Shown: piece by piece, positions 26,228 to 47,446 of the stretch
Layout: each line of letters begins with the position of its first letter
Position numbering within the stretch: position 1 is the stretch's first letter
From: a virus
Length of the DNA: 64,000 bases
Virus record (IMG/VR): IMGVR_UViG_3300043313_001352
Span: 1 to 64,000 of that record
Strand: one strand, 5' to 3'
The notes under the pieces: model-generated
Databases searched by the model: none
Seen by the model: only the letters and a program-made list of their open reading frames with translations
What the model was told of the DNA's origin: nothing
Position numbers and translations under genes: made by a program

Positions 26228-26276
26228 TGGTGTAGGCTGTTCCTAGGAACAGCCCACCACGACGTAAGGACCCACC
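26228..26276 (+). promoter_or_regulatory. First promoter of the array (no upstream box)
   Basis: TGGTG-TAGGCT, palindrome GGCTGTTCCTAGGAACAGCC, CACGACGTAAGGAC. Confidence 0.7.
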
Positions 26277-26555
26277 ATGGCCACCTCCCTCTCCACCATC
26301 GGAGGCATCACTGCCTATCGCGAGACGCGTCCTGTCTGCGCGCACGACGCCTCGACTGCTGCGCGCGTGGGCACCGACACCATCGCCAGCGTCTGGGAGT
26401 GCGACGACTGCGAGCGTCAGGTCCCCTTCACCGGCGAGGACTACGCCTTCTGCAACGCGCAGGCGTGGACGCCTCGCGCACCCGAGGGGATCGCGCGCCT
26501 CGCGTGGACCCTCATGGGTGACGCGGCACGGCGCGCCCACCTGCTCGCAGGCTGA
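26277..26555 (+). CDS. Hypothetical protein
   Basis: Promoter and leader upstream. Confidence 0.65.
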   Translation: MATSLSTIGGITAYRETRPVCAHDASTAARVGTDTIASVWECDDCERQVPFTGEDYAFCNAQAWTPRAPEGIARLAWTLMGDAARRAHLLAG

Positions 26556-26625
26556 CCGCATCCCGCATCTGCCCGGTCCCGACAGGGGCCGGGCAGTGCT
26601 GCGTCCTGGGGTCACCGCATGCCAG

Positions 26626-26722
26626 CTGACGTTTACGCAGCGTCACCGCATCCCGCATCCCCTCTGACTGCACGCTGTGGTAGGCTTACGTCAGTAAGCC
26701 ACCAACGACGTAAGGACTCGCC
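26626..26722 (+). promoter_or_regulatory. Box/promoter/leader module 1
   Basis: CTGACGTTTACGCAG ends 26640; TAGGCT at 26681; GGCTTAC-gtca-GTAAGCC. Confidence 0.8.
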
Positions 26723-27133
26723 ATGACTGCCCCCCTCGCCCCCGGCCACGCCCCCTCCATCCCCTGCCAGACCGAGCGCGAGCGGATGCTCAACTCCCTG
26801 TTCACCACTGCCCTTGAGGGTGGCATCGGCTACTGGTCGCAGTGCACGGAGTACCGGTGGCACGTGGCAGGCACCGACGCAGTCGAGGCTCTCGACTTCA
26901 TCGCGGTGATCATCGAGACCGGAGACGGAGACGGCACCGACCAGTTCGTGATCGACCAGTCGGTGATCAAGCGTGGCATCCGCAAGGCGCACGCGCGCGG
27001 CAACTGGAACGACTACGTCACCGCTGCGCTGCGGGACCTGACGTTCGGCAACTGGGACGAGGTCGACTACGACTCCGACGTGGCCGACATCGTCGTCCAG
27101 TTCGGGCTCTGGGACGAGTACCGCTACGCCTGA
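26723..27133 (+). CDS. Conserved phage hypothetical protein
   Basis: TTALEGGIGYW...DSDVADIVVQFGLWDEYRY. Confidence 0.75.
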   Translation: MTAPLAPGHAPSIPCQTERERMLNSLFTTALEGGIGYWSQCTEYRWHVAGTDAVEALDFIAVIIETGDGDGTDQFVIDQSVIKRGIRKAHARGNWNDYVTAALRDLTFGNWDEVDYDSDVADIVVQFGLWDEYRYA

Positions 27134-27180
27134 CCGGCGAGCCCGGCGCCAGCTGCCTCGGCAGCTGGCGTGCGAGGCGG

Positions 27181-27308
27181 AACGTCAGTGACGTTTACGC
27201 AGCGGCCCGGCGGCCCGGCGCCTGGCCTGGAAGGCGCGCGATGCGCGGGATGGCTGCACGGTGTGGTAGGCTTACGTCAGTAAGCCACAACGACGTAAGG
27301 ACAGAACG
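27181..27308 (+). promoter_or_regulatory. Module 2
   Basis: AACGTCAGTGACGTTTACGCAG ends 27202; TAGGCT at 27267. Confidence 0.8.
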
Positions 27309-27503
27309 ATGCAGGTCGACACGAACTGGAAGCCGGGAGCCTCCGACCGCGAGCGCTCCGCCCGTGAGCACGGCGCATGGGTGGTTCGCCCGCACGGCAC
27401 CCGTGCTCGGGACAACCGCTCGCGTGAGGCTCGCGACTGGCAGGCTGAGGCTCGCGACGAGGTCGAGGCTCTCGGGCTGGCCATGGTCGGGGGTGCCCGA
27501 TGA
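27309..27503 (+). CDS. Small hypothetical protein
   Basis: Leader upstream. Confidence 0.6.
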   Translation: MQVDTNWKPGASDRERSAREHGAWVVRPHGTRARDNRSREARDWQAEARDEVEALGLAMVGGAR

Positions 27504-28003
27504 GCGTCACCTTCTCGATCGAGGCCAACTTCACCGGCGCCTTCACCGCGCACTGCTACGAGGGCGACGTCACCCTCGGGCCGGTCGAGGGCTACGAGGC
27601 GATCGTGCCGCTGCTCGACGCGCACAAGGCGACGTGCGAGGACTGCGCGGCGTACGGGCTGCACTCCCAAGCCGTGCTCGACGTGGACGACACGCTCGAC
27701 CTCAACGTCTCCAACCTCAACGCGCGCACCCTGCTGATCGCGCTCGGGCTGGACGACGGCGACGACCTCTGCGGCACGCTCGACGGCGAGGACTTCCTCG
27801 GCCGGGTGCTGCTCGCGCTGGCCACCGACCGCGACGACTCGGGCGTGCCGTACGCCATCGTCGGTGGCGCGGAGGTCGGCCAGTCCGGCGCGACCGTGAT
27901 CGACTGCGGCCGGTCGGTCGGTTACTTCGCGGACCGGTTCGGCGCGCTGCACGCGCTCGCGCTGGAAGCCGTGCGGCTCGGGCGGGGCGTGGTCTGGTCC
28001 TGA
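27500..28003 (+). CDS. Hypothetical phage protein
   Basis: LNVSNLNARTLLIALG; ATGA coupling. Confidence 0.7.
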   Translation: MSVTFSIEANFTGAFTAHCYEGDVTLGPVEGYEAIVPLLDAHKATCEDCAAYGLHSQAVLDVDDTLDLNVSNLNARTLLIALGLDDGDDLCGTLDGEDFLGRVLLALATDRDDSGVPYAIVGGAEVGQSGATVIDCGRSVGYFADRFGALHALALEAVRLGRGVVWS

Positions 28004-28064
28004 GCGCACCTCAGCGCGCCGTGGCCCCTCGCCGGGCACGGCGCGCTAGGCGCGTCAGCTCGGG

Positions 28065-28271
28065 CTAGAAGTAGCCGGGCGTGTCCTTCTTGGGCGCGTT
28101 CATGTCCTCGCGCGTGTGCTCGCCCTTCTTGACGGGGTCCGCCTCGTCCTGCAGGTAGTACTCCTGCTCGCGGGCGTTGGCGTGCTCGTGCCCCGGCTTC
28201 TGCGTCCGGGTGCCCGGCATGTCGTCCCAGGACTCCGGGTAGGTGCTGGGCTCGTTGCTCGACTGGCTCAT
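28065..28271 (-). CDS. Small hydrophilic protein, antisense to the array
   Basis: GAGAGGA RBS; MSQSSNEPSTYPESW. Confidence 0.5.
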   Translation of the reverse strand: MSQSSNEPSTYPESWDDMPGTRTQKPGHEHANAREQEYYLQDEADPVKKGEHTREDMNAPKKDTPGYF

Positions 28272-28345
28272 CGGACTGATCCTCTCGGGGGTGGTCCTCG
28301 TCCTTGCAGGGTACGCGCTTGCGGCGTGGTTAGCGATACACAAAG

Positions 28346-28551
28346 CACTGACGTTTACGCAGCCCTCCCCCTGCTCGCAGCCCCGACGATCGGGAGCGTG
28401 GGAGCCCGACGATTGGTAGCGGACGCAACGGTGTGGTACGCTTACGTCAGTAAGCGAGACACCCGCTACGGATGCGAAACCGTGGGGTCTGACTGGAATC
28501 TCAGACCGGGGGTCCCGCTCACTCCCCCGACACACGACGTAAGGACACCCG
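28346..28551 (+). promoter_or_regulatory. Module 3, with structured insert in leader
   Basis: Box ends 28362; TACGCT at 28437. Confidence 0.8.
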
Positions 28552-28875
28552 ATGACCGAGACCGTGACCCTCCTCCCGACCGTGCGCATCTGGCGCACCC
28601 GGTTCTTCGAGGCGGACGTCTGGGAGGGCGACTTCCCCCGCGACGACACGCGCAGCGAGGACTTCGACTTCGACGTCGAGGACTGCATCGAGGGCGCCGT
28701 GCGCGTGCTCCAGCGCGAGGGCTTGACCTTCACCGCCACCGGCACGGACTGGGCCGGGAATCCGGACGGCACCGTGATCATCGACTACGGCACCGCGCAG
28801 CGCGAGGAGACCACCGGTCACTTGATCGGCTTCACCGCTGAGCAGACCGCGACGATCATCGAGCGGGTGGGCTGA
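28552..28875 (+). CDS. Acidic hypothetical protein
   Basis: Leader upstream. Confidence 0.7.
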   Translation: MTETVTLLPTVRIWRTRFFEADVWEGDFPRDDTRSEDFDFDVEDCIEGAVRVLQREGLTFTATGTDWAGNPDGTVIIDYGTAQREETTGHLIGFTAEQTATIIERVG

Positions 28876-28876
28876 C

Positions 28877-29158
28877 ATGCGCTTGCTCCCGACGCTGGAC
28901 TTCCCCGAGACCGAGACCGGTACCTTCCTCGCCCGTGCCTACGCCACGCAGGAGGAGGGCTTCCTGGCCGTCGAGCAGGACGAGTCCGGGGACATCGTGG
29001 ACCTGGCCTACTCCTGGGAGACCGCCGAGTCGCTCGCCCTGAACGGATCGCGGGTCACCGTGCTCTGGTCGGACGGCGACTACTGGGACGTCGAGCGGGT
29101 GCAGCGGTTGTGCGATACCTCGCGAGCGGCCTACCGCGACTGCTTCGACGTCGCCTAG
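28877..29158 (+). CDS. Acidic hypothetical protein
   Basis: Adjacent ORF. Confidence 0.6.
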   Translation: MRLLPTLDFPETETGTFLARAYATQEEGFLAVEQDESGDIVDLAYSWETAESLALNGSRVTVLWSDGDYWDVERVQRLCDTSRAAYRDCFDVA

Positions 29159-29168
29159 TCTGGGCGCA

Positions 29169-29301
29169 CGTAGCCGCTACTCTCCCCCGATGACGCGGCT
29201 ACGGGTCCCTCGCGTGGACGGGGCGAGCCCCGGCTGCTGACCCGAGACGGCGCCGGAGGCTTCCCTCCCGGAACGCCCCGCTTCCTCCACGCGAGGGACC
29301 C
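29169..29301. ncRNA. Candidate structured RNA
   Basis: 9-bp hairpin then perfect 16-bp IR 29203-29218/29286-29301 enclosing further stems. Confidence 0.45.
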
Positions 29302-29309
29302 CTCCCCCT

Positions 29310-29426
29310 CACTGACGTTTACGCAGCTGGCTCCCTCGCCGCGGGCCGTGCGTCGACGCGCGGTTTCGACACTGACGGGAGAGTGTGGTATGCTTACGCA
29401 GTAAGCAAACGACGTAAGGACAGATC
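29310..29426 (+). promoter_or_regulatory. Module 4
   Basis: Box ends 29326; TATGCT at 29389. Confidence 0.8.
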
Positions 29427-29885
29427 ATGACCAGCATCCCGACCGGCCCGCGGGCCGACAAGCATGGCAACCTGATCGCCCGCGAGGGTGCCGACCGTTG
29501 CGGCTGCGGTGCGAAATACTGGGAGGACGACAAGTGCGTCGACTGCGGCACGCACGTGCGGCACGCGATCCAGCCGGAACTCCCCGAGGTGCCCGCGAAC
29601 CCGATCATCGCGCTGGTCCGCGAGGACGACGTGGAGCACGACCCGTGGGGCACCGGCATGGCGTGGGCGTTCGCCGTCGCCGAGAACCTGCACTTCCGCG
29701 CGGGGGAGCCCGTGCCGGACTCGCTCGGCTACCGGCCGGGCATGGGCGCGACCGATATCGAGCCGGACGATTTCAACGCGCAGACCATCGCCGAAGAGGG
29801 TTTCGACTCCGGCACGATGACCGAGGCGGCCGAGATCTTGAGCGCTTTCCTCGACGAGTGCAAGCGACTCGGGAAGGACTACTGA
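29427..29885 (+). CDS. Hypothetical protein with N-terminal Zn ribbon
   Basis: CGCGAKYW...CVDCG. Confidence 0.7.
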   Translation: MTSIPTGPRADKHGNLIAREGADRCGCGAKYWEDDKCVDCGTHVRHAIQPELPEVPANPIIALVREDDVEHDPWGTGMAWAFAVAENLHFRAGEPVPDSLGYRPGMGATDIEPDDFNAQTIAEEGFDSGTMTEAAEILSAFLDECKRLGKDY

Positions 29886-30088
29886 TGGCGCGCGTGTGGC
29901 AGCGCGTGGTCACCACGCCCGAGTTCCGCGCGGGTCAGAACGCGGCGTGGGAGGACTTCCGCAAGGATCCGGACTCGACCCCCAACGTCGAGTTGCTCGC
30001 GCGGCTGCGCTCGCGTGAGTTCGCCGCTGGCTACACCGACGAGTGGGAGCACTTCATTGCCCCCGTGCTCGCCCGGCGCCAGGACTAA
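29885..30088 (+). CDS. Small hypothetical protein
   Basis: TGATG coupling. Confidence 0.55.
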   Translation: MARVWQRVVTTPEFRAGQNAAWEDFRKDPDSTPNVELLARLRSREFAAGYTDEWEHFIAPVLARRQD

Positions 30089-30134
30089 AGCGCGCGCCAG
30101 CTGACGGCCCCGGCCGCCAGCTGACGGCGCACGG

Positions 30135-30249
30135 AACGTCACTGACGTTTACGCAGCTCCGGCGGCCTGGCGCCGCGGCCGTGCACTCGGAGCGGCGGGA
30201 CGGTGTGGTATGCTGACGTAGTCAGCACGACACAACGACGGAGGACCGG
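30135..30249 (+). promoter_or_regulatory. Module 5
   Basis: AACGTCACTGACGTTTACGCAG ends 30156; TATGCT at 30209; TGCTGAC-gta-GTCAGCA. Confidence 0.8.
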
Positions 30250-30504
30250 ATGAGCGACGCAGTCGAGTGGATCTTCGAGGGTCCCGACCCCGAGGTGGGC
30301 ATCTTCGGCGACCTGATCGTGCACCCGTGCGCGAAGAACGTGGACGAGGAGCAGGCCGAGGAGGTCGGCACCGTGCACGCCGAGAAGGTGCACACGGTCC
30401 GGATCATCACCCGGTTCCGGTGCCCGGCCTGCGGCGCGGAGACCACCGCGACCGAGGAGCAGCCGCGTGAGCACTTCCTGGAGCCCGGCCGGGGTGGCTG
30501 GTGA
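30250..30504 (+). CDS. Small hypothetical protein
   Basis: Leader upstream. Confidence 0.65.
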   Translation: MSDAVEWIFEGPDPEVGIFGDLIVHPCAKNVDEEQAEEVGTVHAEKVHTVRIITRFRCPACGAETTATEEQPREHFLEPGRGGW

Positions 30505-30872
30505 TGGCCAAGCCCGAGACCAGCACCCGTGAGAACGCAGTGATCGCGCTCGGCGCGGTCCTGCTGATCGTGATGTTCTACGGCGGCGGCGCGATCGGCA
30601 GCAACTACTCCGAGACCACCGGCGTGGGCACGCTGATCGGGCTGCTGGCTGGCACCGGCGCCTGGGCGCTCGTGTTCGGCACGGTGTGCTGGCTGCTGGC
30701 CCCCAAGCCCAAGCCGCTGGAGACCTCGCCGTTCGATGACGACCAGCCCGAGGAGACCGAGCCCGTCGAGGAGGAGGACGACCACGAGGAGCAGGAGCCC
30801 GTGGATCTCGACTACTTCGAGATGGAGCAGGCGCGGCAGGCCGAGGAGTACCCGACGCGCGAGGGCTGGTGA
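30504..30872 (+). CDS. Two-TM protein with acidic tail
   Basis: Hydrophobic segments, D/E-rich C-terminus. Confidence 0.65.
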   Translation: MAKPETSTRENAVIALGAVLLIVMFYGGGAIGSNYSETTGVGTLIGLLAGTGAWALVFGTVCWLLAPKPKPLETSPFDDDQPEETEPVEEEDDHEEQEPVDLDYFEMEQARQAEEYPTREGW

Positions 30873-30876
30873 CGCA

Positions 30877-30917
30877 CGAAACCCCGCTAGATACACGAGG
30901 TGCCTAGCGGGGTTTCG
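30877..30917. terminator. Terminator-like hairpin
   Basis: 14-bp perfect IR CGAAACCCCGCTAG/CTAGCGGGGTTTCG. Confidence 0.65.
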
Positions 30918-30920
30918 CTC

Positions 30921-31030
30921 TGCCTTCACCCACTTTGGTCTGGGCCGAAGCCCGTCTCATCATGGGATCTGACTGCAGCCTTTGCCTTCACGCTCAAGGT
31001 CCCGAAGGACCGAGTGCTCTCCAGCTCTGG
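30921..31030 (-). ncRNA. Candidate minus-strand structured RNA
   Basis: Two cUUCGg hairpins, each followed by GUGAAGGCA. Confidence 0.45.
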
Positions 31031-31052
31031 CAGGTCCCCAACGTAGCCAGGG

Positions 31053-31174
31053 CACTGACGTTTACGCAAGGAGCGACACGCCGCGCGCTGGCGTTTTGGC
31101 AAACAGGTTGGTGATGACGGGACGGTGTGGTACGCTTTCCTTGAAAGCGAACGACAACGACGAAGGGACACCCG
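31053..31174 (+). promoter_or_regulatory. Module 6
   Basis: Box ends 31069; TACGCT at 31131; CGCTTTC-ctt-GAAAGCG. Confidence 0.8.
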
Positions 31175-31531
31175 ATGCGCGAGGACCACTACTCCAACAC
31201 GGTGGAGGACGCCGGTGCGTGGGAGCGCGAGCGTGGCATGGCCGAGGACGTGGACTACGACCGGCCCACCGCCGCCGAGGCGGAGGCTGACCGCTGGTTC
31301 ACCGGTCCGGAGACGGTGATCGGCTACGGCATCCGCTGCGCTCACTGCAAGAACCGCCACGCCACCGTGGCCGACGTCCGCTGGTGCGGGGACGTGCACG
31401 CCGAGGCCAAGGCTGAGGCGCTGGCCGAGGCCGAGGCGGACCGGGCCTTCGCCCGCGACCGCGAGGCGATCGCCGAGCGCGGCACCTGGTTCGGTCCGGT
31501 CACCGAGGCCGACTCGTGGGACGAGCGGTGA
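31175..31531 (+). CDS. Hypothetical protein
   Basis: IRCAHCKNRHATVADVRWC. Confidence 0.7.
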   Translation: MREDHYSNTVEDAGAWERERGMAEDVDYDRPTAAEAEADRWFTGPETVIGYGIRCAHCKNRHATVADVRWCGDVHAEAKAEALAEAEADRAFARDREAIAERGTWFGPVTEADSWDER

Positions 31532-31827
31532 GCGCCCCGCTGGCGAGCGCGTGCGAGCACCACGACGCCGCGGGAGAGTGCGACGAGGAGTGCCTCGCGC
31601 TGGTGCAGGCGATGAACACCGACTTCAGCGAGCCGATGATCTACGGCGACTATCTCGGCGGCACGTCCTCGATCGACTGGTCGGGCTGCCACGCGCCGGA
31701 GCCGCGCGTCGAGCGGATCGCCCGGCTCGACCCCGTCACCCGGCGGATCTACTGGGAGGAGGTGTGCCCCTACGAGGACGAGCACGACGCCACCGACTGC
31801 ACCGCCTGCTCGTATCTGGGGATGTGA
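31528..31827 (+). CDS. Cys-rich acidic hypothetical protein
   Basis: GTGA coupling. Confidence 0.6.
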   Translation: MSAPLASACEHHDAAGECDEECLALVQAMNTDFSEPMIYGDYLGGTSSIDWSGCHAPEPRVERIARLDPVTRRIYWEEVCPYEDEHDATDCTACSYLGM

Positions 31828-31873
31828 GCCCCCGCTCGTCCGGCCGCCCCAAGGAGGCGGCCGGGCGGGTCGG

Positions 31874-31996
31874 AACGTCACTGACGTTTACGCAGCCAGC
31901 TCGCCTGGCCGCCGGGGTACGACTCCCGCGTCGCGAGAGGTTCGACTGGACAGTGTGGTATGCTTTCCTTGAAAGCAAACGACGAAGGGACACACC
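31874..31996 (+). promoter_or_regulatory. Module 7
   Basis: Box ends 31895; TATGCT at 31959. Confidence 0.8.
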
Positions 31997-32458
31997 ATGA
32001 GGATCCACTCCGACTCGGTCGACACGCTCGACATCCGCAAGGCCGCGACGCTCGCCGCCGTGGACTTCACCCGCTTCGACCTCAAGGGCAGCCGCTCACG
32101 CGCGCAAGCCTTCGACGTCATCTTGACCGGTGACTCCGGGCGCCAGCAGAACGGCGGCGGCGATGAGGCGGCGTCCTGGGACCAGTGGGGGATCTTCCTG
32201 GGCCACCTGTTCCGGCTGGACCAGCACCTCAAGACGCCCTACTACGTCGACGGGGAGCACTTCGTCTGGGTCACCGGCAACCGGTTCACCCCCGACTTCA
32301 CCCCCGGTGACTGCCACCGCCGCCACCGGTGGGGGATGGGTCACCCCGCGATCACCGGGACCTACTCGGTCGCCGAGTGCGAAGAGGGCAAGGACCCGTG
32401 CGGCGCGGTTCAGCGCTGGATGCTGCACGGGCGCACGTTCGCCGACCTCAACCGCTAG
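31997..32458 (+). CDS. Conserved actinophage hypothetical protein
   Basis: GSRSRAQAFDV...AASWDQWGIFLGHLF. Confidence 0.75.
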   Translation: MRIHSDSVDTLDIRKAATLAAVDFTRFDLKGSRSRAQAFDVILTGDSGRQQNGGGDEAASWDQWGIFLGHLFRLDQHLKTPYYVDGEHFVWVTGNRFTPDFTPGDCHRRHRWGMGHPAITGTYSVAECEEGKDPCGAVQRWMLHGRTFADLNR

Positions 32459-32477
32459 CGGAGCGGCGGCACCGGTG

Positions 32478-32621
32478 CTAGTAGTACCGGTGCCGGGTGC
32501 CGCCGACGGGCACGAACCAGAGCACCAGGCCGACGATGATCAGGATCGCGCCGATGATCGTCAGCCAGTAGATGCCGAGCACCAGGCCGAGCACCAGAAG
32601 GATGAGCCCGAGGATGACCAT
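32478..32621 (-). CDS. DUF6131-like small membrane protein
   Basis: MVILGLILLVLG...IGAILIIVGLVLW..PVGGTRHRYY. Confidence 0.7.
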   Translation of the reverse strand: MVILGLILLVLGLVLGIYWLTIIGAILIIVGLVLWFVPVGGTRHRYY

Positions 32622-32637
32622 GGGCTCAGGGTACGCC

Positions 32638-32764
32638 CACTGACGTTTACGCAGCTTTCCCACTCTGGAGCGGCCCGCTGGTCTAGTCCCGATTCGCGTG
32701 TGTCCGGACACTGGTGTATTGTTCTTCTTGTAAGAACAACGACGCACCGACCGAAGGACACCCC
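32638..32764 (+). promoter_or_regulatory. Module 8
   Basis: Box ends 32654; TATTGT at 32717; TTGTTCTT-cttgt-AAGAACAA. Confidence 0.75.
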
Positions 32765-33205
32765 ATGATCACTGCCGAGTACCTCGCCCTTGTCGAGGGT
32801 GGCACCGACCACTTCACCGTGGAGTTCCACAGCGACACGAAGCCTGCGGCCAAGCACGCGAGCAAGCGGCTCCGCAAGGTCGTCACGGCGGTCGTCATGA
32901 CCGGCGCGTCGTACGCGAACCTCCGCGTCAACAAGGGCGTCGAGACCGGCCCGCTGCCGTGGGGTTCGTGGATGGACGGTGCCGAGCCGTTCGTGATCCA
33001 GCACAAGGGTCAGGACTACGCCCGCCTGTACTGCATCGAGCACGGCGTGCGGGCGATCTACACCGTGGACGGCGAGGTCGTCACGCGGGACGAGTACGAG
33101 TCCTACCTGACGCCCAGCCAGCGCTCCGCGCCCCGGCCCAACGGCGGCTGCATCACGGTCAAGATGAGCGGCGTGCGGCTCGTCGGCGAACCGGCGTTCG
33201 CATGA
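32765..33205 (+). CDS. Hypothetical phage protein
   Basis: LPWGSW...IQHKGQDYARLY. Confidence 0.7.
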   Translation: MITAEYLALVEGGTDHFTVEFHSDTKPAAKHASKRLRKVVTAVVMTGASYANLRVNKGVETGPLPWGSWMDGAEPFVIQHKGQDYARLYCIEHGVRAIYTVDGEVVTRDEYESYLTPSQRSAPRPNGGCITVKMSGVRLVGEPAFA

Positions 33206-33618
33206 CCACGGTCCGCGTCCGCGTCCGCGTTCGTTGTGGCACCTGCGCCGACTGCACAGCCGCCGCTGCCCCGGCCAAGGTGGCCAAGATCGAAGCCCGC
33301 CCGGCTCGTCCGGCTCGTCGGAACGCCTGCGTGTACTGCACCACGCCGGGGTGCGCCGGGGACTGCCCGCGCGCCGTGGCAGCCAAGCGCAAGGCCGAGG
33401 TGCCCTTCTCATGGACGTCGTGGGAGTGGCTGGTGCCGTGGCTGGACTGGTGGCTGACACGGCTGTCCGCCACCAAGCCCCGCACCGCCTCGGCGATCGT
33501 CTACATCGGCCTCGGTCTGGTGATCCTCGCGATCGTCGCCGCCGTGCTTGCCTACTTGGCAGCGATGCTCCTGATGGTCCCGTTCGTGATCATCGGCTTC
33601 CTCATCTTGGTCGACTGA
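33202..33618 (+). CDS. Cys-rich membrane protein
   Basis: ATGA coupling; C-terminal TM segments. Confidence 0.6.
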   Translation: MTTVRVRVRVRCGTCADCTAAAAPAKVAKIEARPARPARRNACVYCTTPGCAGDCPRAVAAKRKAEVPFSWTSWEWLVPWLDWWLTRLSATKPRTASAIVYIGLGLVILAIVAAVLAYLAAMLLMVPFVIIGFLILVD

Positions 33619-33676
33619 CCCACTGCCCGCCACGCGACCCGGCCCCGAAGAGGGGCCGGGAAGGAGGCCGCGAGCT

Positions 33677-40040: not shown

Positions 40041-40226
40041 ATGGACCCGAACGAGACGCTGCAGATCATCCGCAACACCATCGCGCAGATGCGTGTGGAC
40101 GAGCACCCGGCCATCCGCAAGCAGCACGCTGACGACCTGGCCGAGCACTTCGAGGCGCTCGATGAGTGGCTGTCCAACGAGGGCTTCCTGCCCGGCGCGT
40201 GGGCGATCCCCGGCGAGCGTGGCTGA
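40041..40226 (+). CDS. Small conserved actinophage protein
   Basis: MDPNETL...ALDEWLSNEGFLPGAW. Confidence 0.75.
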   Translation: MDPNETLQIIRNTIAQMRVDEHPAIRKQHADDLAEHFEALDEWLSNEGFLPGAWAIPGERG

Positions 40227-40375
40227 TGGACCCGTACTGCGAGGACTGTGGGCTCAGCCTGCACGCGCAGGCCGAGAAGGCGATCGCCTCCGGTGAGTGG
40301 CAGATGGTCTGGGCCGACGCCGACGGCTCCTGGATCTGCCCGCAGACCGGCAACGAGCACCGGCCGCAGAACTAG
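40226..40375 (+). CDS. Small Zn-binding protein
   Basis: CEDCG...C...EH. Confidence 0.5.
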   Translation: MDPYCEDCGLSLHAQAEKAIASGEWQMVWADADGSWICPQTGNEHRPQN

Positions 40376-40620
40376 GCCGAGGCGCTGCTCTGCATCTTGT
40401 TCAGGCGCTCCTGCAGTTCAGCGATCTGCGACTGGATGTGCTCGGCATCCACGCGACCGCGAGGCTTCGGCTCGACACCCTCCAGCGCAGCCTGCTGGCT
40501 GTAGAGCGTGTCGAACTCGCCCTGGTGCTGGTTGATGAGCAGCTGCGTGGCGCGGTAGCGCGCCCGGTTCGCCGCACGCACCTGGGCCTTGTGCTTGTCG
40601 GGATCTGATCGAGTGACCAT
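40372..40620 (-). CDS. Small basic/coiled-coil protein
   Basis: AAGGAAG RBS; RARYRATQLLINQHQGEFDTLY. Confidence 0.65.
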   Translation of the reverse strand: MVTRSDPDKHKAQVRAANRARYRATQLLINQHQGEFDTLYSQQAALEGVEPKPRGRVDAEHIQSQIAELQERLNKMQSSASA

Positions 40621-40793
40621 GAGAGTTCTTCCTTCGGGTTGTCTTCCGTCGCTGGGCCAGTTGCTAGACCCCAGACAACCGGCTGTGCCGAATACGACCA
40701 GGGTCTAGGGTCGTGATCCTTGTGCGGATCCTGTTCGGTACTGCTGAGTGTACCGCAGTCCACGTCTCGTTCCGCCAAACAGGCCCAGAAGCT

Positions 40794-40875
40794 ACTGACG
40801 TTTATGCAGACAGGGCTGTACCCGCAACCACGCGGGGCAATCATGCGGGCTGTGGCAGGCTCAGCGTGCTGAGCC
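40794..40875 (+). promoter_or_regulatory. Module 16 (non-consensus -10)
   Basis: Box ends 40809; TGTGG-CAGGCT with GGCTCAGC-gt-GCTGAGCC. Confidence 0.6.
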
Positions 40876-41024
40876 GGGACACACCTACTGAGCAGGGCAA
40901 ACGCCGCACGACGTTGTGTCGGTGGGGTGCCCTAGGGTCAGGACCGTTAGCCAACCTCAGTGCTGACCACACATCTAGACCAGCAGCAGACCACCCGCCC
41001 CGCGATTATGGGGTGACGCAATCC

Positions 41025-41078
41025 TGTGGTAGGCTCTGGGTACAGAGCCAGACAGTGAACGACGAAAGGACGCATGAC
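41025..41078 (+). promoter_or_regulatory. Promoter and leader of AAA gene
   Basis: TGTGG-TAGGCT, GGCTCTG-ggta-CAGAGCC, AACGACGAAAGGAC. Confidence 0.75.
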
Positions 41079-42416
41079 GTGAGTACCAAGAGCACCGCCG
41101 TGATGATGCAACTCGCCACGGCCGATGGGGATTCCAAGCAGCAGATGGTGGTCTTCGCCAACAAGGCGGTCTACCGCCGCAGCCTGACCGAGGGCACCCG
41201 CACCCGCTGGCGCTACGCCAGCGTGGGCGACCTGCCGACGTGGGTCGAGGGCTACGTGAACCTCACGCAGGCCGCGCCCACCCCGATGAGCATCAGCCAC
41301 GGCGCCACCCTGATGGAGGTCACCGAGGACGAGGCAACCGAGGCCGAGGGCGGCGCGTTCCCGAGGAACGTGGGGCTGCGCTACTCCCGCGTGATCGACG
41401 CGATGGACGCGGACCCGACCAGCAACGTCCCGACACCGGACGTGAAGCAGTACGTGCAGGACTGGCTGGACGCGCAGGGCCGCGACGACAACGCGTGGAT
41501 CGACACGCACGTGCACTCCGCAGGCACGTGCGTGATCAAGCCCGCCGCACCTGAGCCTGAGCCGGAGGAAGAGCCGGAGGTCACCGTGGCCACCACGACG
41601 GGCGGCTGGACCTACCCCGAGACCAAGGGCGGCTACATCACCCGCCCGAACGGGACCAAGTACAAGGTCCGCACGCTGGACGGCACGCCCGACGTGCAGG
41701 TGATCCGCGAGGCTCGCCCCGACCGCGAGCACGTGTTCCTCTACGGCGAGCCGGGGACCGGCAAGACGGCACTGGTCGACTCCGCATTCGGCACCGATCT
41801 GGTGACCATGCTGGGCACCGAGGACACCGAGGTCGCGGACTTCATCGGCGGCTACACCGTGCGCGGTGGCGGCTCCTACGGCTGGACGGACGGCGCGCTC
41901 ACCGAAGCCATGGAGCGCAAGGTCCCGCTGTTCATCGACGAGATTGGGGTGATCGCTCCCAAGGTGCTCACCACCGTGTTCTCGGTGATGGACGGCCGCG
42001 ACGAGATTCGGATCACCGCGAACCCCGACCGGGGCATCGTGACCGCTGGGCACGGCTTCTTCGTGCTGGCAGCCACGAACCCGCACGCTCCCGGCGTGCG
42101 GCTCTCCGAGGCGCTGCTCTCCCGGTTCGCGATCCACCTTGAGGTCGGCAGCGACTACTCCGTGTGCCGCGAGATGGGGGTGCCGGACGTGCTGGTCACC
42201 GCCGCCGAGAACTTGGACAAGCGCCGCGCCACCGGCGAGATTGGCTGGGCACCGCAGATGCGTGAACTGCTCCGCGCCAAGGCGCAGTGGACCAAGCGCG
42301 GCGACGCGTTCGCGATCCGCAACCTGATCAGCGGCGCACCCGAGGACGACCGCGAGGTCGTGGCCGAGGTCATGGCCCGCACCACCGGGAAGAAGTTGAC
42401 CGGGCTGGTCCTCTGA
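41079..42416 (+). CDS. MoxR-type AAA+ ATPase (CbbQ/NirQ/NorQ-like)
   Basis: GEPGTGKT, LFIDEIG, AATNP, LSEALLSRF, MRELL; GTG start after leader. Confidence 0.9.
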   Translation: MSTKSTAVMMQLATADGDSKQQMVVFANKAVYRRSLTEGTRTRWRYASVGDLPTWVEGYVNLTQAAPTPMSISHGATLMEVTEDEATEAEGGAFPRNVGLRYSRVIDAMDADPTSNVPTPDVKQYVQDWLDAQGRDDNAWIDTHVHSAGTCVIKPAAPEPEPEEEPEVTVATTTGGWTYPETKGGYITRPNGTKYKVRTLDGTPDVQVIREARPDREHVFLYGEPGTGKTALVDSAFGTDLVTMLGTEDTEVADFIGGYTVRGGGSYGWTDGALTEAMERKVPLFIDEIGVIAPKVLTTVFSVMDGRDEIRITANPDRGIVTAGHGFFVLAATNPHAPGVRLSEALLSRFAIHLEVGSDYSVCREMGVPDVLVTAAENLDKRRATGEIGWAPQMRELLRAKAQWTKRGDAFAIRNLISGAPEDDREVVAEVMARTTGKKLTGLVL

Positions 42417-42530
42417 GACTTCCGCCCCGCGTCGTTGCAGGCGCGGGGCGGGGGACCGTTCACAGTGAACGGCTCTGTAGTCGCTGGCGTCAGCTCGCAG
42501 TCGAGCTGGCGCCAGCGCAGCCAGGAACCG

Positions 42531-42687
42531 CACTGACGTTTACGCAGCCAGGCGCGCTGGACACGGCGCAGGCGTGGACAGGGCGAGGGTGCACCAGTTT
42601 GGTAATGACTGGCTCATGGTGTAAACTGAGGTTACGAGGTCAGGGTGACTCCCGGCCACACAGACAGAACGACGAAAGGACAGGGCC
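42531..42687 (+). promoter_or_regulatory. Module 17
   Basis: Box ends 42547; TAAACT at 42622. Confidence 0.75.
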
Positions 42688-44523
42688 ATGGGCCACATCT
42701 TGTACGGCAAGGTCGAGAGCACTGTGAACAAGAGCGACGACGACTGGTACGGCGTCGCGGCGCAGGTCGGCAAGTTCACGAACAAGCGTGCGCACCGCAC
42801 CGATATCACCGCAGTCGTGTCCAGCACTGCTGGCATGGGCGCTCCCGCGTGCTTCATCCCCTCGCTCGCTGAGATGCACATCAACACCGAGGCCGCTCCC
42901 ATGGGTCCTCCCGACAAGGTCAATCTGGACGACCGCATGTGGATGCTCACCTACGCCCCGAGCGTGGGCGCGTGCACCCACGAAGCGGCACACGCCCGCC
43001 ACACGCACTGGGACCCCCGCGACCTGATGGAGAACTACGAGGCCACCCGCAAGATGGTCGACGTGATCACCACGCTGGAAGAGCCGCGCATCGAGGCACA
43101 GGCGCTGCGCTTCCACCCTGACTCGCGTCCCTTCCTGCGGGGCTGCGCGATGGAGATTGTCGGGCGCGACTTCGTGATCCCCGACTCCCGGTACGGCGCT
43201 GCCGCTGCTGCTGGTCTGCTGCTGGCGCGGGTCGATGCCAAGGTGCTCACGCGCCGCGAGGCGTCGACGTTCCGCCGCGATATCGCTGCGGTGCTGGGCG
43301 AGACGCTGGACGTGTTGGAGCCGCTGTGGCAGCGCTTCCTGATGCTGCACGACCACGACTACGCGGGCATGGTGGAGATTGCCGCCGCGTGGCTGGACGC
43401 GCTGGGCGAGGACCCCGAGGACGCCTCCGAGATGGTGGGCGAGTCGATGATGGGCGAGCCGCTTCCCGGCGACCCCGGCGAGGATGACGGCTCTGGCAAG
43501 GGCGAGGGCGGCGAGGGTGAGGGCGACGAGTCCAAGGGTGAGGCGTCCGGCTTCGGCGACAAGATCATGGGCAAGGTGCACATCACCGAGTCCAAGATGG
43601 ACAAGGAGGTCACCGAGGCTCGCGGCGAAGAGCGCGCCGAGCGTGCTCGCGCCGAGCGCCGCACCGACGCCGAGCGCCGCAAGGCTGCCGAGGGTCCGCA
43701 CGCCGAGGCGTTCGCGCACACCGGGCTGCACGGCTACACGCCGGACGGGTTCGCGCACTACGCGGGGTCACGCCCGCCGAGCGCCGACGAGCGCCGTGCG
43801 GCCAAGTCGCTGGCCCGGTCCTTGGAGAAGATCGACTACCGCGACCGTGCGGTGACCAAGGTCCGCAGCGTGGTGCCTCCCGGCCGTCTGGTCGGGCGGG
43901 CTGCGGTGCAGGCCGACGCGATGACCGAGCAGGGCCGGGACGCCTCCGGTGTCGAGGTCTGGTCCGGCAAGCGCCGCAAGCGCGTCGAGTCCACGCCGCT
44001 GACGATCGGGTTCCTCGGGGATATCTCGGGGTCGATGAACGCAGCCATGGAGCCGCTGGCATCGAGCCAGTGGGTCGTGAGCACCGCAGGCGCGCACGTG
44101 GATGCCAAGGTCGCCAGCGTGCACTTCGGTGATCAGGTGCACGGCATCACGCCCGCTGGCGTGCGGGAGAAGGACGTGCGCCTGTTCGCGCCGTACGACG
44201 GCAGCGAGGCGTTCAAGGACGCAGCGCTGGCGATCGACAAGGAACTGAACCTGCTGGACGGGCGGGGTGCTCGCATCCTGTTCATCGCCAGCGACGGGCA
44301 GTACGTGAACGGCACCGATATGGCCTACGCCGCGAAGTGGATTCCGTTGGCCAAGCGCAAGGGTGTTGCGGTGATCTACCTCAACTTCCTCGGGTCGATG
44401 AACCCGACCGGCGTGGCCGGGTCCAAGGTGATCGACTGCGTCCGCAAGTCTCCCGCCGAGGTCGCCGCGCTGTGCGGGAAGATCGCGATCGCGGAGGTCC
44501 GCAAGATCGACCAGCGGGTCTAG
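42688..44523 (+). CDS. VWA-domain protein with N-terminal HExxH domain (CobT/NorD-like partner)
   Basis: HEAAH...LEEPRIE; acidic linker; MIDAS DISGSM and SDG. Confidence 0.88.
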   Translation: MGHILYGKVESTVNKSDDDWYGVAAQVGKFTNKRAHRTDITAVVSSTAGMGAPACFIPSLAEMHINTEAAPMGPPDKVNLDDRMWMLTYAPSVGACTHEAAHARHTHWDPRDLMENYEATRKMVDVITTLEEPRIEAQALRFHPDSRPFLRGCAMEIVGRDFVIPDSRYGAAAAAGLLLARVDAKVLTRREASTFRRDIAAVLGETLDVLEPLWQRFLMLHDHDYAGMVEIAAAWLDALGEDPEDASEMVGESMMGEPLPGDPGEDDGSGKGEGGEGEGDESKGEASGFGDKIMGKVHITESKMDKEVTEARGEERAERARAERRTDAERRKAAEGPHAEAFAHTGLHGYTPDGFAHYAGSRPPSADERRAAKSLARSLEKIDYRDRAVTKVRSVVPPGRLVGRAAVQADAMTEQGRDASGVEVWSGKRRKRVESTPLTIGFLGDISGSMNAAMEPLASSQWVVSTAGAHVDAKVASVHFGDQVHGITPAGVREKDVRLFAPYDGSEAFKDAALAIDKELNLLDGRGARILFIASDGQYVNGTDMAYAAKWIPLAKRKGVAVIYLNFLGSMNPTGVAGSKVIDCVRKSPAEVAALCGKIAIAEVRKIDQRV

Positions 44524-44537
44524 CCCGCACCCAAGCC

Positions 44538-44613
44538 GGGGTCCGGCTCACCGACTCGTCATCGGGCTGCGTGAGGTCGTTACGTCCTTTCGTCCCTCAC
44601 CGAGCCGGACCCC
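44538..44613 (+). ncRNA. Candidate RNA with loop antisense to the shared leader
   Basis: 12-bp closing stem; GTGAGG/CCTCAC stem with loop containing GTCCTTTCGTC. Confidence 0.5.
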
Positions 44614-44654
44614 ACCTAGCACGACAACGACACAACGACAGAACGGAGCACGGC

Positions 44655-44849
44655 ATGTTGAACACAACGATCAAGGACTGGCAGGTGGTCTGCGGGCTGC
44701 GTTGCCGGTGGGGCTTCCGAGCCGCTGACGGCACGGAGGTCTGGCGGCAGCGCGGCATCGCGCTGGCAGTGCTGCGCAAGGACACCACCGTGTTCCTGCT
44801 GCGGGTGCCCTACACGCTGCGCACCTACCCAGGGGTGGTGTGGTCATGA
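44655..44849 (+). CDS. Small hypothetical protein
   Basis: ACAACGAC leader repeats, GGAG RBS. Confidence 0.5.
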   Translation: MLNTTIKDWQVVCGLRCRWGFRAADGTEVWRQRGIALAVLRKDTTVFLLRVPYTLRTYPGVVWS

Positions 44850-45187
44850 GCACCCCTGACTTCCGCAACGAGGACCCGGTCTGGGTCCGGTACGCCGAGA
44901 TGACCAGCGGCGGGCACGACAAGTTCTACGAGCTGACCATCCACCTGCACGACGACGGCCTCTTCTACGTCCAGAAGCGGTGGGGCCGACGCCCCGACGC
45001 GGGCGGCGGGCAGATCAAGGTCGAGTACTACGCGAGCCTGGACTCCGCGCAGGGCATCGCGATCGGCATGCTCCGCGAGAAGTTGGCCAAGGGCTACCGC
45101 GAGGTCGAGCGCCCCTTCGGCGCCGGGCAGCGAGTCCGCCGTGAGCACGGGCCGGACTTCTACGCCGAGGGCACCGAGGCGTTCTAG
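44846..45187 (+). CDS. WGR-domain protein
   Basis: DKFYEL...VQKRWGR...GQ...EKLAKGYRE. Confidence 0.85.
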   Translation: MSTPDFRNEDPVWVRYAEMTSGGHDKFYELTIHLHDDGLFYVQKRWGRRPDAGGGQIKVEYYASLDSAQGIAIGMLREKLAKGYREVERPFGAGQRVRREHGPDFYAEGTEAF

Positions 45188-45235
45188 CCGCATCAACCGG
45201 CCGCCGCCTGGCGGCCGGTTTCGGCAGTGACGTCT

Positions 45236-45346
45236 ACTGACGTTTACGCAGCCTGGCGGCTACCTGGTGGGCTGGCCTGGTTTGCCTGCTGATCTAGATG
45301 GTGTAGACTGTTCTCAACAGCCCAACGACGACAAGGACACACTGAC
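45236..45346 (+). promoter_or_regulatory. Module 18
   Basis: Box ends 45251; TAGACT at 45304; CTGTT-ctc-AACAG. Confidence 0.8.
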
Positions 45347-45709
45347 ATGGCTACTGCTTACAGCCCGCCCGAGGGTTTCGAGCCCCCGCAGATCACGCTG
45401 GAGAACATGCGTGATGGCTCCTACGAGCGCGAGGAGGCTGCCTTCCTCGAACGGCTCGCCGACCGCGCCAAGATGAACGGCACCAGCCCGCTGCTGGGCG
45501 AGGTGGTCCGCTGGTCGCGTGCCGACGGCTACGCGCAGTACATGGTCTGGAACACCAAGCCGCTGCAACTGATCCACCTCAACCTCATCGACGGCTACTC
45601 GATCGAGCCCGCGCTGATCCGGGGCCTCCGGGTCGCCGACATCCGCGACATGGTCGAGAGCGCTGCCCGGCTGCGCGCGCTGTTCAGCCGGAAGCGGGAC
45701 GAGTCATGA
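45347..45709 (+). CDS. Conserved phage hypothetical protein
   Basis: GEVVRWSRADGYAQYMV...LIHL...DGY. Confidence 0.75.
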   Translation: MATAYSPPEGFEPPQITLENMRDGSYEREEAAFLERLADRAKMNGTSPLLGEVVRWSRADGYAQYMVWNTKPLQLIHLNLIDGYSIEPALIRGLRVADIRDMVESAARLRALFSRKRDES

Positions 45710-45975
45710 GCACGATCTCCCGGACCATCTTCACCTTCGAGGTGCTGCACCGCACCGACCAGCCGTGCGTCGAACTGGACGAGGCGCTGGAGCGTGCCTC
45801 GGACGGCCACGCCGTCGGCATGGTCACCTCCGAGAAGACCGTCGAGGTCCCGGACACCGAGGTGCCCGAGACGCTGATCGACTTCGGCAGCGATGGCGAG
45901 TTCTTCGATGACGACCTGGGTGTCGGCACCGAGACCTACACCGTCGTCATCGACGAGAAGAACTGGGACAACTGA
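45706..45975 (+). CDS. Acidic hypothetical protein
   Basis: ATGA coupling. Confidence 0.65.
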   Translation: MSTISRTIFTFEVLHRTDQPCVELDEALERASDGHAVGMVTSEKTVEVPDTEVPETLIDFGSDGEFFDDDLGVGTETYTVVIDEKNWDN

Positions 45976-46214
45976 TGGCCGAGCAGCAGTACACCCAAGA
46001 GCAGGTCAGCGCCGCGCTGAACAAGGCCGCCGACGACATCATCGAGGCCACCGAGGCGGAGGACGAAGGGCTGCGCGACGCGCTGAACCTGATGGTCAAC
46101 GCCGTCGGCTCCTACCTCTGGGACGGCGCTGAGGATCTGGGTGAGGTGGCGGTCAAGAACTACGACGCCGACCTCGACTCGATCGTCGGCTGGATCCAGC
46201 AGGGGACCCGATGA
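45975..46214 (+). CDS. Acidic hypothetical protein
   Basis: TGATG coupling. Confidence 0.65.
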   Translation: MAEQQYTQEQVSAALNKAADDIIEATEAEDEGLRDALNLMVNAVGSYLWDGAEDLGEVAVKNYDADLDSIVGWIQQGTR

Positions 46215-46483
46215 GCGAGGAGCCCCGCGATCGGGTCAAGAACCCCTCGATCAACTTCCCGCAGACGGCGGAGGAGGCGCAGCGCGCCATCGTCCAGCAG
46301 GTCCGCCGGATGCTGTTCGAGGAGCACAGCGCGGGCTACTCGCCGCTGACCAAGACCCGCACCGACGACGCTGGCTTCGGCACCGTCCGCAGGCCGCAGC
46401 AGACCAAGTGGCTCAACGACGCCGCCGACCTGATCGGGGCCGTCATCGGCGACAAGCTGGACGAGATCGAGGCGGTGATCTGA
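46211..46483 (+). CDS. Hypothetical protein
   Basis: Coupled. Confidence 0.6.
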   Translation: MSEEPRDRVKNPSINFPQTAEEAQRAIVQQVRRMLFEEHSAGYSPLTKTRTDDAGFGTVRRPQQTKWLNDAADLIGAVIGDKLDEIEAVI

Positions 46484-46794
46484 TGACCGACGTGAAGCAG
46501 TGGATCGTGATCGGCACCTCGATGATCATCGAGGACGAGCCGGACGCTGAAGCGGCCATCAACCGCGCCCAGGACATGAGCGGCTGGAACTGGGAGGCCA
46601 TCCCGGCGGTGGACCTGAACCCACTGGTGCACTACGCGAACGTGCTGGAGGCCGCCCAGGAGGCCCAGGACGCTGCGCTGGGCGACTCCAACGACACCGA
46701 GATCGAGTTGCTCCGGGACGCGCTGGAGATGGCGCTGAGCGCACTGCACCTCGAACTGCCCGAGCCCCGCGACCCGGACGACGAAGACGCGTAG
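46483..46794 (+). CDS. Acidic hypothetical protein
   Basis: Coupled. Confidence 0.6.
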   Translation: MTDVKQWIVIGTSMIIEDEPDAEAAINRAQDMSGWNWEAIPAVDLNPLVHYANVLEAAQEAQDAALGDSNDTEIELLRDALEMALSALHLELPEPRDPDDEDA

Positions 46795-46805
46795 GTTAGG
46801 TAACC

Positions 46806-47405
46806 ATGGACGGCATCCGGGACGGCTTCGGCGACGACCCCACCGTGGACGAGGTGCTCGCCGAGGAGGAGGAGTTCCTCGTCCGCAACGCCCGCAACGC
46901 GCTGGTCAAGAAACTGGGCCGGGGCTTCCCCGCCGGAGCCGATGAGGACGCTGTCCAGGAGGCCCGCATTGCGGCCTGGCAGTCCTGGGAGAAGAACCAC
47001 AACCGGGCCTACCTGAACATCGCCGCCCGGCAGCGGCTGATGCAGCACGTCTACCGCGACCAGTGGTTCGGCACCAAGCCGACGGCGCACGAGAAGGACC
47101 CGATCCGCCGGGCCAACCGGGACAGCTTCGATGACCCGGACAACGGCATTGACGTTCTGGTCAACTCGGCGACCTGGGTCGACCAGGTGCTGCTCGCCTA
47201 TCACCACGGCGAGATCCACCAGGCGCTGGACGCACTGACGTTTACGCAGCGCGAGTACGTGGTGCTGCGCTTCTGGGGCGGGATGTCGGACACCGAGATC
47301 GCTGCGCACCAGGGGAAGACACGGGGCGGAGTGTCTTCGGTGTGGCACAAGACCATCCGCCCGGCGCTCGCCTCTCAGTTGGAGTTGTTGAGCGACCTGT
47401 GCTAA
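46806..47405 (+). CDS. Sigma-70 family (ECF-like) sigma factor
   Basis: Region 2 EDAVQEARIAAW...AYLNIAAR; region 4 ALDALTFTQREYVVLRFWGGMSDTEIAAHQGKTRGGV. Confidence 0.85.
   Translation: MDGIRDGFGDDPTVDEVLAEEEEFLVRNARNALVKKLGRGFPAGADEDAVQEARIAAWQSWEKNHNRAYLNIAARQRLMQHVYRDQWFGTKPTAHEKDPIRRANRDSFDDPDNGIDVLVNSATWVDQVLLAYHHGEIHQALDALTFTQREYVVLRFWGGMSDTEIAAHQGKTRGGVSSVWHKTIRPALASQLELLSDLC
47233..47249 (+). promoter_or_regulatory. Perfect box inside sigma CDS
   Basis: CACTGACGTTTACGCAG, encodes LTFTQ. Confidence 0.85.
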
Positions 47406-47446
47406 ACTGTTCCTAGGAACAGACCAACGACGAAGGACGAACTGAC
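47398..47446 (+). promoter_or_regulatory. Promoter and leader
   Basis: TGTGC-TAAACT, CTGTTCCTAGGAACAG, AACGACGAAGGAC. Confidence 0.75.

Follow-up and report, generated by a model that had tools for sequence, protein, structure and literature searches.

The T4-type phages RB49/phi1, PST and nt-1 carry promoter-early stem-loop (PeSL) cassettes, in which a strong early promoter is combined with a stem-loop that lies mostly between -35 and -10 or overlaps -10; these cassettes flank orphan genes and recombine with one another, even within the loop (Arbiol et al. 2010, PMC2839356; Comeau et al. 2014, PMC4122927). Here we describe a PeSL-like cassette family in a clade of uncultured actinophages, as it appears in the first 64 kb (the window, which is the whole stretch of DNA analysed) of the 114-kb viral record IMGVR_UViG_3300043313_001352 (68% G+C). 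The window contains about 21 copies of a unit that consists, in order, of a 17-bp box, (cac)TGACGTTTACGCAG(c), then 40-74 nt, then cTGtCGGGAC(g/a)G-TGTGG-TAnnnT, a stem-loop, (A)AACGACGAAGGGAC and a start codon. The leader that follows the hairpin is A/C-rich and carries the AACGACGAAGGGAC, and the gene downstream is a small orphan gene. Two of the copies, with left arms at 5685 and 26235, have no upstream box. The units make up a co-directional promoter array with one terminator-like site in 20 kb, an arrangement that the original prediction for this DNA overlooked, together with the PeSL cassettes themselves.

The cassette hairpin is real, strongly covarying and embedded in the promoter. It had been proposed that a short inverted repeat starts in the last 2-4 bases of the -10 and changes in sequence while its pairing is kept. 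All 11 of the repeats then listed are present, and further left arms lie at 5685, 26235, 27269, 28439, 29391, 31961, 33748, 34561 and 35578, and at 40858, where the hexamer lacks TA; the left arm begins at hexamer base 3 (the last four bases) or base 5 (the last two). The conservation of pairing exceeds both shuffled and slid controls: among 20 window copies 84.3% of cells are paired against 64.7% (standard deviation 2.5) after shuffling, a value reached by none of 500 shuffles, the covariation score is 0.477 against 0.174, and when the partners are slid by 1-3 columns the paired fraction is 32-38%. For a wider comparison, a pattern scan of metagenome contigs returned about 110 soil contigs with the unit, and these, the phage and its complete relative G001 (177 kb) gave 217 distinct cassettes. 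In 81% of them the stem is perfect over at least 5 bp and in 73% over at least 6 bp, against 7-36% for control windows in the same sequences. The mean number of pairs formed is 5.91 of 7, as compared with 4.36 (standard deviation 0.06) when the right arms are dealt among the cassettes, and there are 19 distinct fully paired 7-bp stems.

Perfect stems are 5-8 bp long; the commonest form has 7 bp from hexamer base 3 and a 3- or 4-nt loop. In 169 of the 176 cassettes with a stem of at least 5 bp the stem begins at hexamer base 3-5. Upstream of orthologous genes, stem differences are compensated and loops drift freely. The loops are strongly strand-asymmetric, about two-thirds pyrimidine and hardly ever inverted, and no preference for special loops was seen (GNA triloops, 17/68 on the top strand and 13/68 on the bottom). 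Chimeric stems such as TGCTTAC gca GTCAGCA, with the left arm of one type and the right arm of another, occur in at least four gene contexts. That the arms covary, that the spacer between them is either 3 or 4 nt, and that loops are free between orthologs is evidence for a hairpin rather than a protein site.

Other apparent features of the hairpin did not hold up. An outer helix between TGTGGT (upstream) and AACGACG (downstream), suggested by RNA folds, is paired in 61% against 62% when shuffled and does no better than slid partners; it arises from a GU-rich stretch facing an AC-rich one. A tolerance of wobble on the opposite strand came down to an A-C excess stemming from TAGACT hexamers and chimeric stems, and a link between hairpin presence and the quality of TGTGG was confounded by mis-anchored weak sites. 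A GATTCTA/TAGAATC inverted repeat around the -10 of the named relative DSL-LC01 covaries weakly (p 0.06) and is no more than a feature of the consensus.

The TAnnnT hexamer is very probably the true -10. The cassette consensus, TGTGGTAnGCT, has the form of an extended -10 and fits the consensus of C. glutamicum SigA, tgngnTA(c/t)aaTgg (PMC1779776). In the hexamer the first two bases (T and A) and the final T hardly vary, even though the stem neighbours of that final T covary, and its partner is always A. In more distant relatives, homologous cassettes have the same AACGACGAAAGGAC leader and a textbook TGTTATAAT (DSL-LC01) or TGTATAAT (G002) in the hexamer's place. Distances from box to hexamer cluster at about 42, 52, 62 and 73 nt, with a best period of 10.5-10.75 bp (R 0.54, p ~1e-24; R 0.83 in the window's phage alone), and helical phasing of this kind is a property of duplex DNA. 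The phased box centres, near -61, -71, -81.5 and -92.5, would by analogy occupy classic upstream activator positions, like a class I activator site. No RNA polymerase could be detected in either the window's phage or G001: the complete genome of G001 yielded no polymerase of the T7-like or virion type and no beta subunit, the giant proteins of G001 (the portal fusion, the tail lysin and the topoisomerase IB-domain protein) lack a DxDGD-type motif, and PF00940 and PF00562 gave no match, the former being weak as a single search since it matched no control genome either.

Starts at sigma-70-type promoters lie 6-8 nt past the hexamer. Here the seventh base past it is a purine in 79/79 cassettes with a 3-nt loop, and the right arm opens with a purine (column 12 or 13) in 172 of 175 cassettes, usually after a pyrimidine. 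The sequence thus contains what an actinobacterial SigA extended -10 promoter calls for, tgngnTA...T and a purine 6-8 nt after the hexamer, at a start that is predicted. That start should be the first purine of the right arm, which would put the left arm at -10/-9 to -4, the loop at -3 to +1 and the right arm at +1/+2 to +7/+8. The earlier placement of the left arm upstream of +1 therefore very probably stands, and with a sigma-70-type -10 and a start at the right arm, RNA started locally would not contain the left arm.

As for what the hairpin does, we weakly favour the reading, to which we would give a probability of about 0.35, that its pairing counts at the level of single-stranded DNA, at the promoter of the cassette itself, and not in RNA. 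Pairs of the G-T type make up 4/322 in 46 distinct stems, against 18/238 in terminator-like RNA hairpins from these phages (Fisher p 2e-4), and G-T is the rarest class of mismatch in the stems; moreover, the frequent pair exchanges are double transversions (T-A to G-C, A-T to T-A), which pass through no wobble intermediate. Both observations lean slightly toward pairing at the DNA level. A similar slight lean comes from the divergent junctions: the box-less promoters at 5681 and 26233, each with a minus-strand gene upstream, keep stems of 6 and 8 bp in diverged orthologs while their loops change (the 5681 promoter is conserved in G001 with a changed loop), although RNA from further upstream may still cross both sites. 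The offset between hairpin and hexamer is 2-4 in 159/166, far tighter than the distance between hairpin and start codon (15-46 nt), and the clade has TAnGCT where its relatives have TATAAT, which suggests that the -10 has been bent to fit the stem. The idea of selection on DNA structure, already put forward in the original prediction, thus keeps some ground in the strictly Watson-Crick pairs and in the hairpins retained beside minus-strand upstream genes, and finds none in precedent among sigma-70-type promoters.

The most physically sensible form of such a role at the DNA level is one of scrunching and escape. Once the first 7-8 nt of RNA had been made and downstream DNA had been pulled in and unwound, the freshly exposed right arm of the non-template strand would zip onto the left arm. 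Zipping would remove positions -9 to -7, including the invariant T, from sigma, which would then allow the polymerase to get away from an extended -10 promoter that binds it tightly. The exact complementarity of the arms is probably maintained in part by copying errors, templated by the hairpin, when the DNA replicates. More speculatively, and in our estimate rather improbably, these cassettes may stand for a class of sigma-70-type promoters with a built-in non-template hairpin from -9 to +8 that zips at 7-8 nt and pulls the -10 off sigma, a class in which it would be the secondary structure of the DNA, and no protein factor, that programmes promoter escape (or re-opening).

A good deal weighs against a DNA-level role. 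We know of no sigma-70-type promoter that uses such a hairpin, and actinobacterial polymerases are usually limited by the stability of the open complex, not by escape. The mean DNA hairpin energy, -4.7 kcal/mol with DNA parameters, is weak; some orthologous promoters have lost the hairpin and kept TAnnnT, and the copy at 40851 has kept the hairpin without the TA. The fixed register could be mere inheritance, since overlapping elements leave no room for insertions or deletions, and one stem type accounts for 105/161, which makes the effective number of independent stems small. In RNA, too, short AU-rich stems may have little room for G-U, and selection accounts for a spectrum of mismatches that shows no preference for wobble no better than hairpin-templated copying does. 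Finally, PeSL stem-loops that overlap -10 were read as acting on RNA (PMC2839356).

An alternative that is almost as likely takes up that last point: the hairpin may be idle at its own promoter and fold in transcripts from upstream promoters, as in the PeSL cassettes. There it might serve as an insulator, a processing mark or a stability element of polycistronic RNA, in the last case by protecting the 3' end of the upstream cistron or by blocking a 5' exonuclease after cleavage, while locally started RNA would be without it. Because about 20 co-directional promoters share the single terminator-like site in their 20 kb, RNA that reads through carries both arms, and in an RNA context of -100 to +80 the fold is predicted with a median pair probability of 0.98, the mean RNA energy being -7.0 kcal/mol; the earlier verdict that an mRNA hairpin is unlikely was therefore not justified. 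The PeSL stem-loops of RB49/phi1 commonly overlap -10, and one has been shown to stop upstream transcription (PMC2839356; PMC4122927). Retention of the hairpin at 40851, on a hexamer without TA, also suits a role in read-through RNA, and a hairpin is somewhat less frequent where a terminator lies upstream (13/21 against 138/168, p 0.04, the rows not being independent). On the other side, no T run lies 3' of the stem, where AAACGACG follows, and the cassette hairpins, which have neither this nor the G+C-rich stem of an intrinsic terminator, are therefore not standard terminators; a terminator scan reports none of them. G-U is nearly absent, unlike in the terminators of the same phages, and a weak, AT-rich stem is found in a genome of 68% G+C, though 40-75 nt of unconstrained spacer would be available for it. 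Hairpins are kept at 5681 and 26233 despite the minus-strand gene upstream, and the right arm is free of ribosome site and start codon, with no alternative downstream partner beyond control.

It is improbable, though less so than the explanations that remain, that the hairpin has no present function and is a palindrome of the ancestral cassette that was spread as cassettes multiplied and maintains itself, being kept perfect by hairpin-templated strand switching in replication (quasi-palindrome correction) and by recombination between cassettes. The absence of any G-T preference among mismatches and the changes by double transversion would be accounted for in this way, as would the chimeric stems in at least four gene contexts, which are expected of crossovers in the loop; homology blocks between the two phages often begin at boxes, and some orthologs dispense with the hairpin. 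Such a palindrome is harder to reconcile with a stem kept in 81% of the 217 cassettes and in 19 distinct perfect forms, with a -10 that departs from TATAAT to fit the stem, and with loops that are strand-asymmetric and hardly ever inverted. At 26233, moreover, the 16 stem bases are unchanged in the ortholog (L231), where coding sequence is 73% identical and the loop has become tca.

An ordinary 5' RNA hairpin, with a start at or before TA and a stem that caps and stabilises its own mRNA, like the T7 phi10 leader, is a common phage arrangement, and a hairpin about 20 nt before the start codon would be well placed for it; it is nevertheless very unlikely, as it requires that TGTGG-TAnnnT is not a -10, in conflict with the invariant T-A...T, the TATAAT of relatives, the helical phasing and the failure to find a phage RNA polymerase, and as the upstream positions that would be needed as -10 carry little information. 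Least credible of all is a repressor operator that overlaps the start site and is bound by a dimeric protein of phage or host, to which the centring of the palindrome near +1, the arms GCTTAC/GTAAGC common to most copies and the presence in some hairpin copies of TTACGCAG or TGACGT, as in the box, might point, for its half-sites co-change in many ways within one genome, across a spacer of 3 or 4 nt and free loops.

Coordinates of the cassette promoters, hairpins and boxes in the window (promoter assignments predicted; arms in capitals, loops in lower case).
Feature	Position	Strand	Hexamer	Hairpin	Start codon	Remarks
Box-less promoter, same type	5681..5703	+	TAACGT	GTTTAC gttgaag GTAAAC	ATG 5729	minus-strand gene just upstream
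First promoter of array	26233..26254	+	TAGGCT	GGCTGTTC ctag GAACAGCC (8 bp)	26277	no box; TTGGTC -35-like hexamer 18 bp upstream
17-bp box array, (cac)TGACGTTTACGCAG(c)	26627..47250	+				19 boxes, most 40-74 nt 5' of a hexamer
Promoter/hairpin	26681..26700	+	TAGGCT	GGCTTAC gtca GTAAGCC	ATG 26723	
Promoter/hairpin	27267..27286	+	TAGGCT	GGCTTAC gtca GTAAGCC	ATG 27309	
Promoter/hairpin	28437..28456	+	TACGCT	CGCTTAC gtca GTAAGCG		no close ribosome site, leader ~100 nt
Promoter/hairpin	29389..29407	+	TATGCT	TGCTTAC gca GTAAGCA	ATG 29427	
Promoter/hairpin	30209..30227	+	TATGCT	TGCTGAC gta GTCAGCA	ATG 30250	
Promoter/hairpin	31131..31149	+	TACGCT	CGCTTTC ctt GAAAGCG	ATG 31175	
Promoter/hairpin	31959..31977	+	TATGCT	TGCTTTC ctt GAAAGCA	ATG 31997	G001 ortholog TAAACT, no hairpin
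Promoter/hairpin	32717..32739	+	TATTGT	TTGTTCTT cttgt AAGAACAA (8 bp)	ATG 32765	
Promoter/hairpin	33746..33764	+	TATGCT	TGCTTAC gca GTAAGCA	ATG 33785	
Promoter/hairpin	34558..34576	+	TATGCT	GCTTAC ttca GTAAGC	ATG 34607	ArdC-like gene
Promoter/hairpin	35576..35595	+	TATGCT	TGCTTAC atct GTAAGCA	GTG 35618	
Promoter/hairpin	36785..36801	+	TAAACT	CTGAC gga GTCAG	ATG 36843	hairpin lost in G001 ortholog; just 3' of the only strong terminator-like hairpin (36654-36684)
Promoter/hairpin	37726..37745	+	TATTCT	TTCTTAC gtca GTAAGAA	ATG 37769	G001 ortholog TGCTGAC gta GTCAGCA
Promoter/hairpin	38866..38884	+	TACGAT	CGATTAC gag GTAATCG		
Promoter/hairpin	40003..40020	+	TAAACT	CTGTC ctta GACAG	ATG 40041	
Hairpin without TA hexamer	40851..40875	+	TGTGG-CAGGCT	GGCTCAG cgtg CTGAGCC		kept in G001, loop cctg
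Promoter/hairpin	41030..41049	+	TAGGCT	GGCTCTG ggta CAGAGCC	41074	MoxR-type AAA gene
Promoter/hairpin	45304..45320	+	TAGACT	CTGTT ctc AACAG	ATG 45347	operon ending with phage sigma gene
Promoter/hairpin	47403..47422	+	TAAACT	CTGTTC ctag GAACAG	ATG 47447	

Of the 22 places in the window that match the box, 21 are on the + strand; those beyond the array include 50234 and 52896. In about one-third of box copies the upstream flank completes a palindrome, AACGTCAnTGACGTT. A search of viral contigs with the bare box pattern returned chance single matches only, and no consistent structure was seen in the spacers between box and hexamer. The element cTGtCGGGAC (columns -16 to -8, for instance 30192-30203) ends 11-12 bp short of the -10, closer than a normal -35 would be; relatives have TTTACA (G002) or ATTCTAAAG (DSL-LC01) at this short distance too, an arrangement that recalls the MotA box of T4 middle promoters. 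By eye, an extracytoplasmic function (ECF) promoter (GGGAC, 15 nt, CGTC), LexA/Cheo boxes and a DnaA box were set aside as accounts of the cassette, the needed bases being unconserved or the spacing wrong. The leader of about 100 nt at 28437-28552 is conserved in G001 and might be a small RNA, or else have a regulatory role as a leader; it has no Rfam match, and Rfam and tRNA scans of the window as a whole gave zero matches.

The nearest named relatives of the phage, by capsid and primase, are DSL-LC01 and the ~190-kb phages of Microbacterium and Arthrobacter, all of them large actinophages, and no near-identical DNA was found among named phage records. G001, at about 85% identity, is complete, with terminal repeats, and collinear with the record, which indicates that the record is cut short. 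The public runs listed as holding phage sequence are soil DNA in 24/24 cases, with no RNA run among them. A divergent phage sigma factor gene with regions 2 and 4 (46806-47405) lies inside one cassette operon, and a free 120-aa protein matches the C-terminal domain of the RNA polymerase alpha subunit (56 bits; 50146-50316); copies of the 17-bp box lie inside both genes. Among the cassette genes (34526-35458, 40713-44523) one codes for an anti-restriction protein that resembles ArdC and has a metallopeptidase motif, and another for a MoxR-type AAA ATPase, after which comes a 611-aa protein; DSL-LC01 also has the latter pair, and there the second member carries the annotation of a cobalamin biosynthesis protein.

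Elsewhere in these genomes, about 620 bp of non-coding, G-rich sequence with AGGCAG/GGCAGG-type repeats (25605-26230) separates the minus-strand genes from the array's first promoter and is not conserved in G001. The G001 genome encodes a 2796-aa protein (L257:6005-14392 (-)) that has, close to the C-terminus, the catalytic domain of a eukaryotic-type topoisomerase IB (Pfam E 1.5e-12), next to a 1825-aa portal fusion protein and a 1980-aa tail lysin, in a region missing from the window's record. Beyond the window, a CCAGGTGTA repeat with ~200-bp spacing (G000 88400-94200, L010) was considered as a regulatory motif and rejected, being a coding module on the minus strand. In DSL-LC01 (L263, OQ999401.1), about 30 homologous cassettes of the form GATTCTAAAG-a-TGTTATAAT-a-GAATCA ... 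AACGACGAAAGGACAA lie at 22600-43400, many of them preceded by G+C-rich terminator-like hairpins, and this named relative is one in which the promoter family could be studied.

Promoter cassettes of this kind bear on how large phages express and shuffle many orphan early genes. Should the hairpin act in read-through RNA, the PeSL-type design would reach actinophages, pointing to a general solution for tandem promoter arrays; should it act in DNA, this would be the first host-polymerase promoter with kinetics set by a strand hairpin. Either way, more than 200 natural variants, with 19 perfect stems in one promoter frame, are a ready mutational series for studies of promoters in high-G+C Gram-positive bacteria.

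Hairpins that act as DNA at promoters are known from coliphage N4, where P1-P3 carry small ones (5-7 bp stem, 3-nt loop), and the original prediction had been reminded of these and of plasmid Frpo promoters. The defining features of both systems are missing here. The N4 hairpin contains conserved bases, has its centre about 12 nt upstream of +1 and is read by the phage virion RNA polymerase, whereas the cassette hairpin is centred on the predicted start, varies in stem and loop and accompanies a SigA-type -10, with no phage polymerase found; and the long hairpin of Frpo-type promoters rebuilds a duplex -35 and -10, whereas a stem of 5-8 bp takes in only the last 2-4 bases of the -10. In the promoter-within-hairpin control of T4 lysozyme (gene e) and I-TevI, and in the fold-back inhibition of IS10/IS50, the ribosome site or start codon lies in the 3' arm, which keeps read-through RNA from being translated. 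As in those systems, the start here would lie between the arms, with only read-through RNA able to form the hairpin; in contrast to gene e and IS10, there are 15-46 nt between the end of the 3' arm and the start codon, the ribosome site is free and there is no alternative partner. A precedent for a functional hairpin of non-template-strand DNA on bacterial RNA polymerase is the ops element, which RfaH reads as a small hairpin of that strand (Zuber et al. 2018, PMC5995543). The ops sequence is a conserved 12-nt element whose tiny hairpin is read by a protein in a paused elongation complex; the cassettes have an 18-nt hairpin of free sequence at a promoter.

The likeness to PeSL goes much further. 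There, too, an intergenic cassette (70-100 bp in PeSL) is present in many near-identical copies and combines a host-type early promoter, which here is inferred, with a ribosome site and a start codon, and the stem-loop often overlaps the -10. Both kinds of cassette flank small orphan genes in a variable region (here 10/10 cassette genes have no Pfam match), and both mark mosaic boundaries, several homology blocks between the window's phage and G001 beginning, by eye, within ~25 bp of a box. PeSL cassettes recombine, crossovers within the loop included, and the cassettes here appear to do so too, as the chimeric stems would suggest. The differences lie in the phages and in the details of the promoter and stem. 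PeSL cassettes belong to T4-type myoviruses of Gram-negative hosts and these to what are, by their nearest relatives, actinophages, with an extended -10, no standard -35 and a phased upstream box. PeSL stems pair G-runs with C-runs, admit G-T pairs and occupy five positions, whereas the actinophage hairpin is short (~7 bp), AT-rich, strictly Watson-Crick and without terminator features such as a T run, and sits in one fixed register centred on the predicted start. That the actinophage cassettes share the PeSL design, and that PeSL is the closest known system, is well supported.

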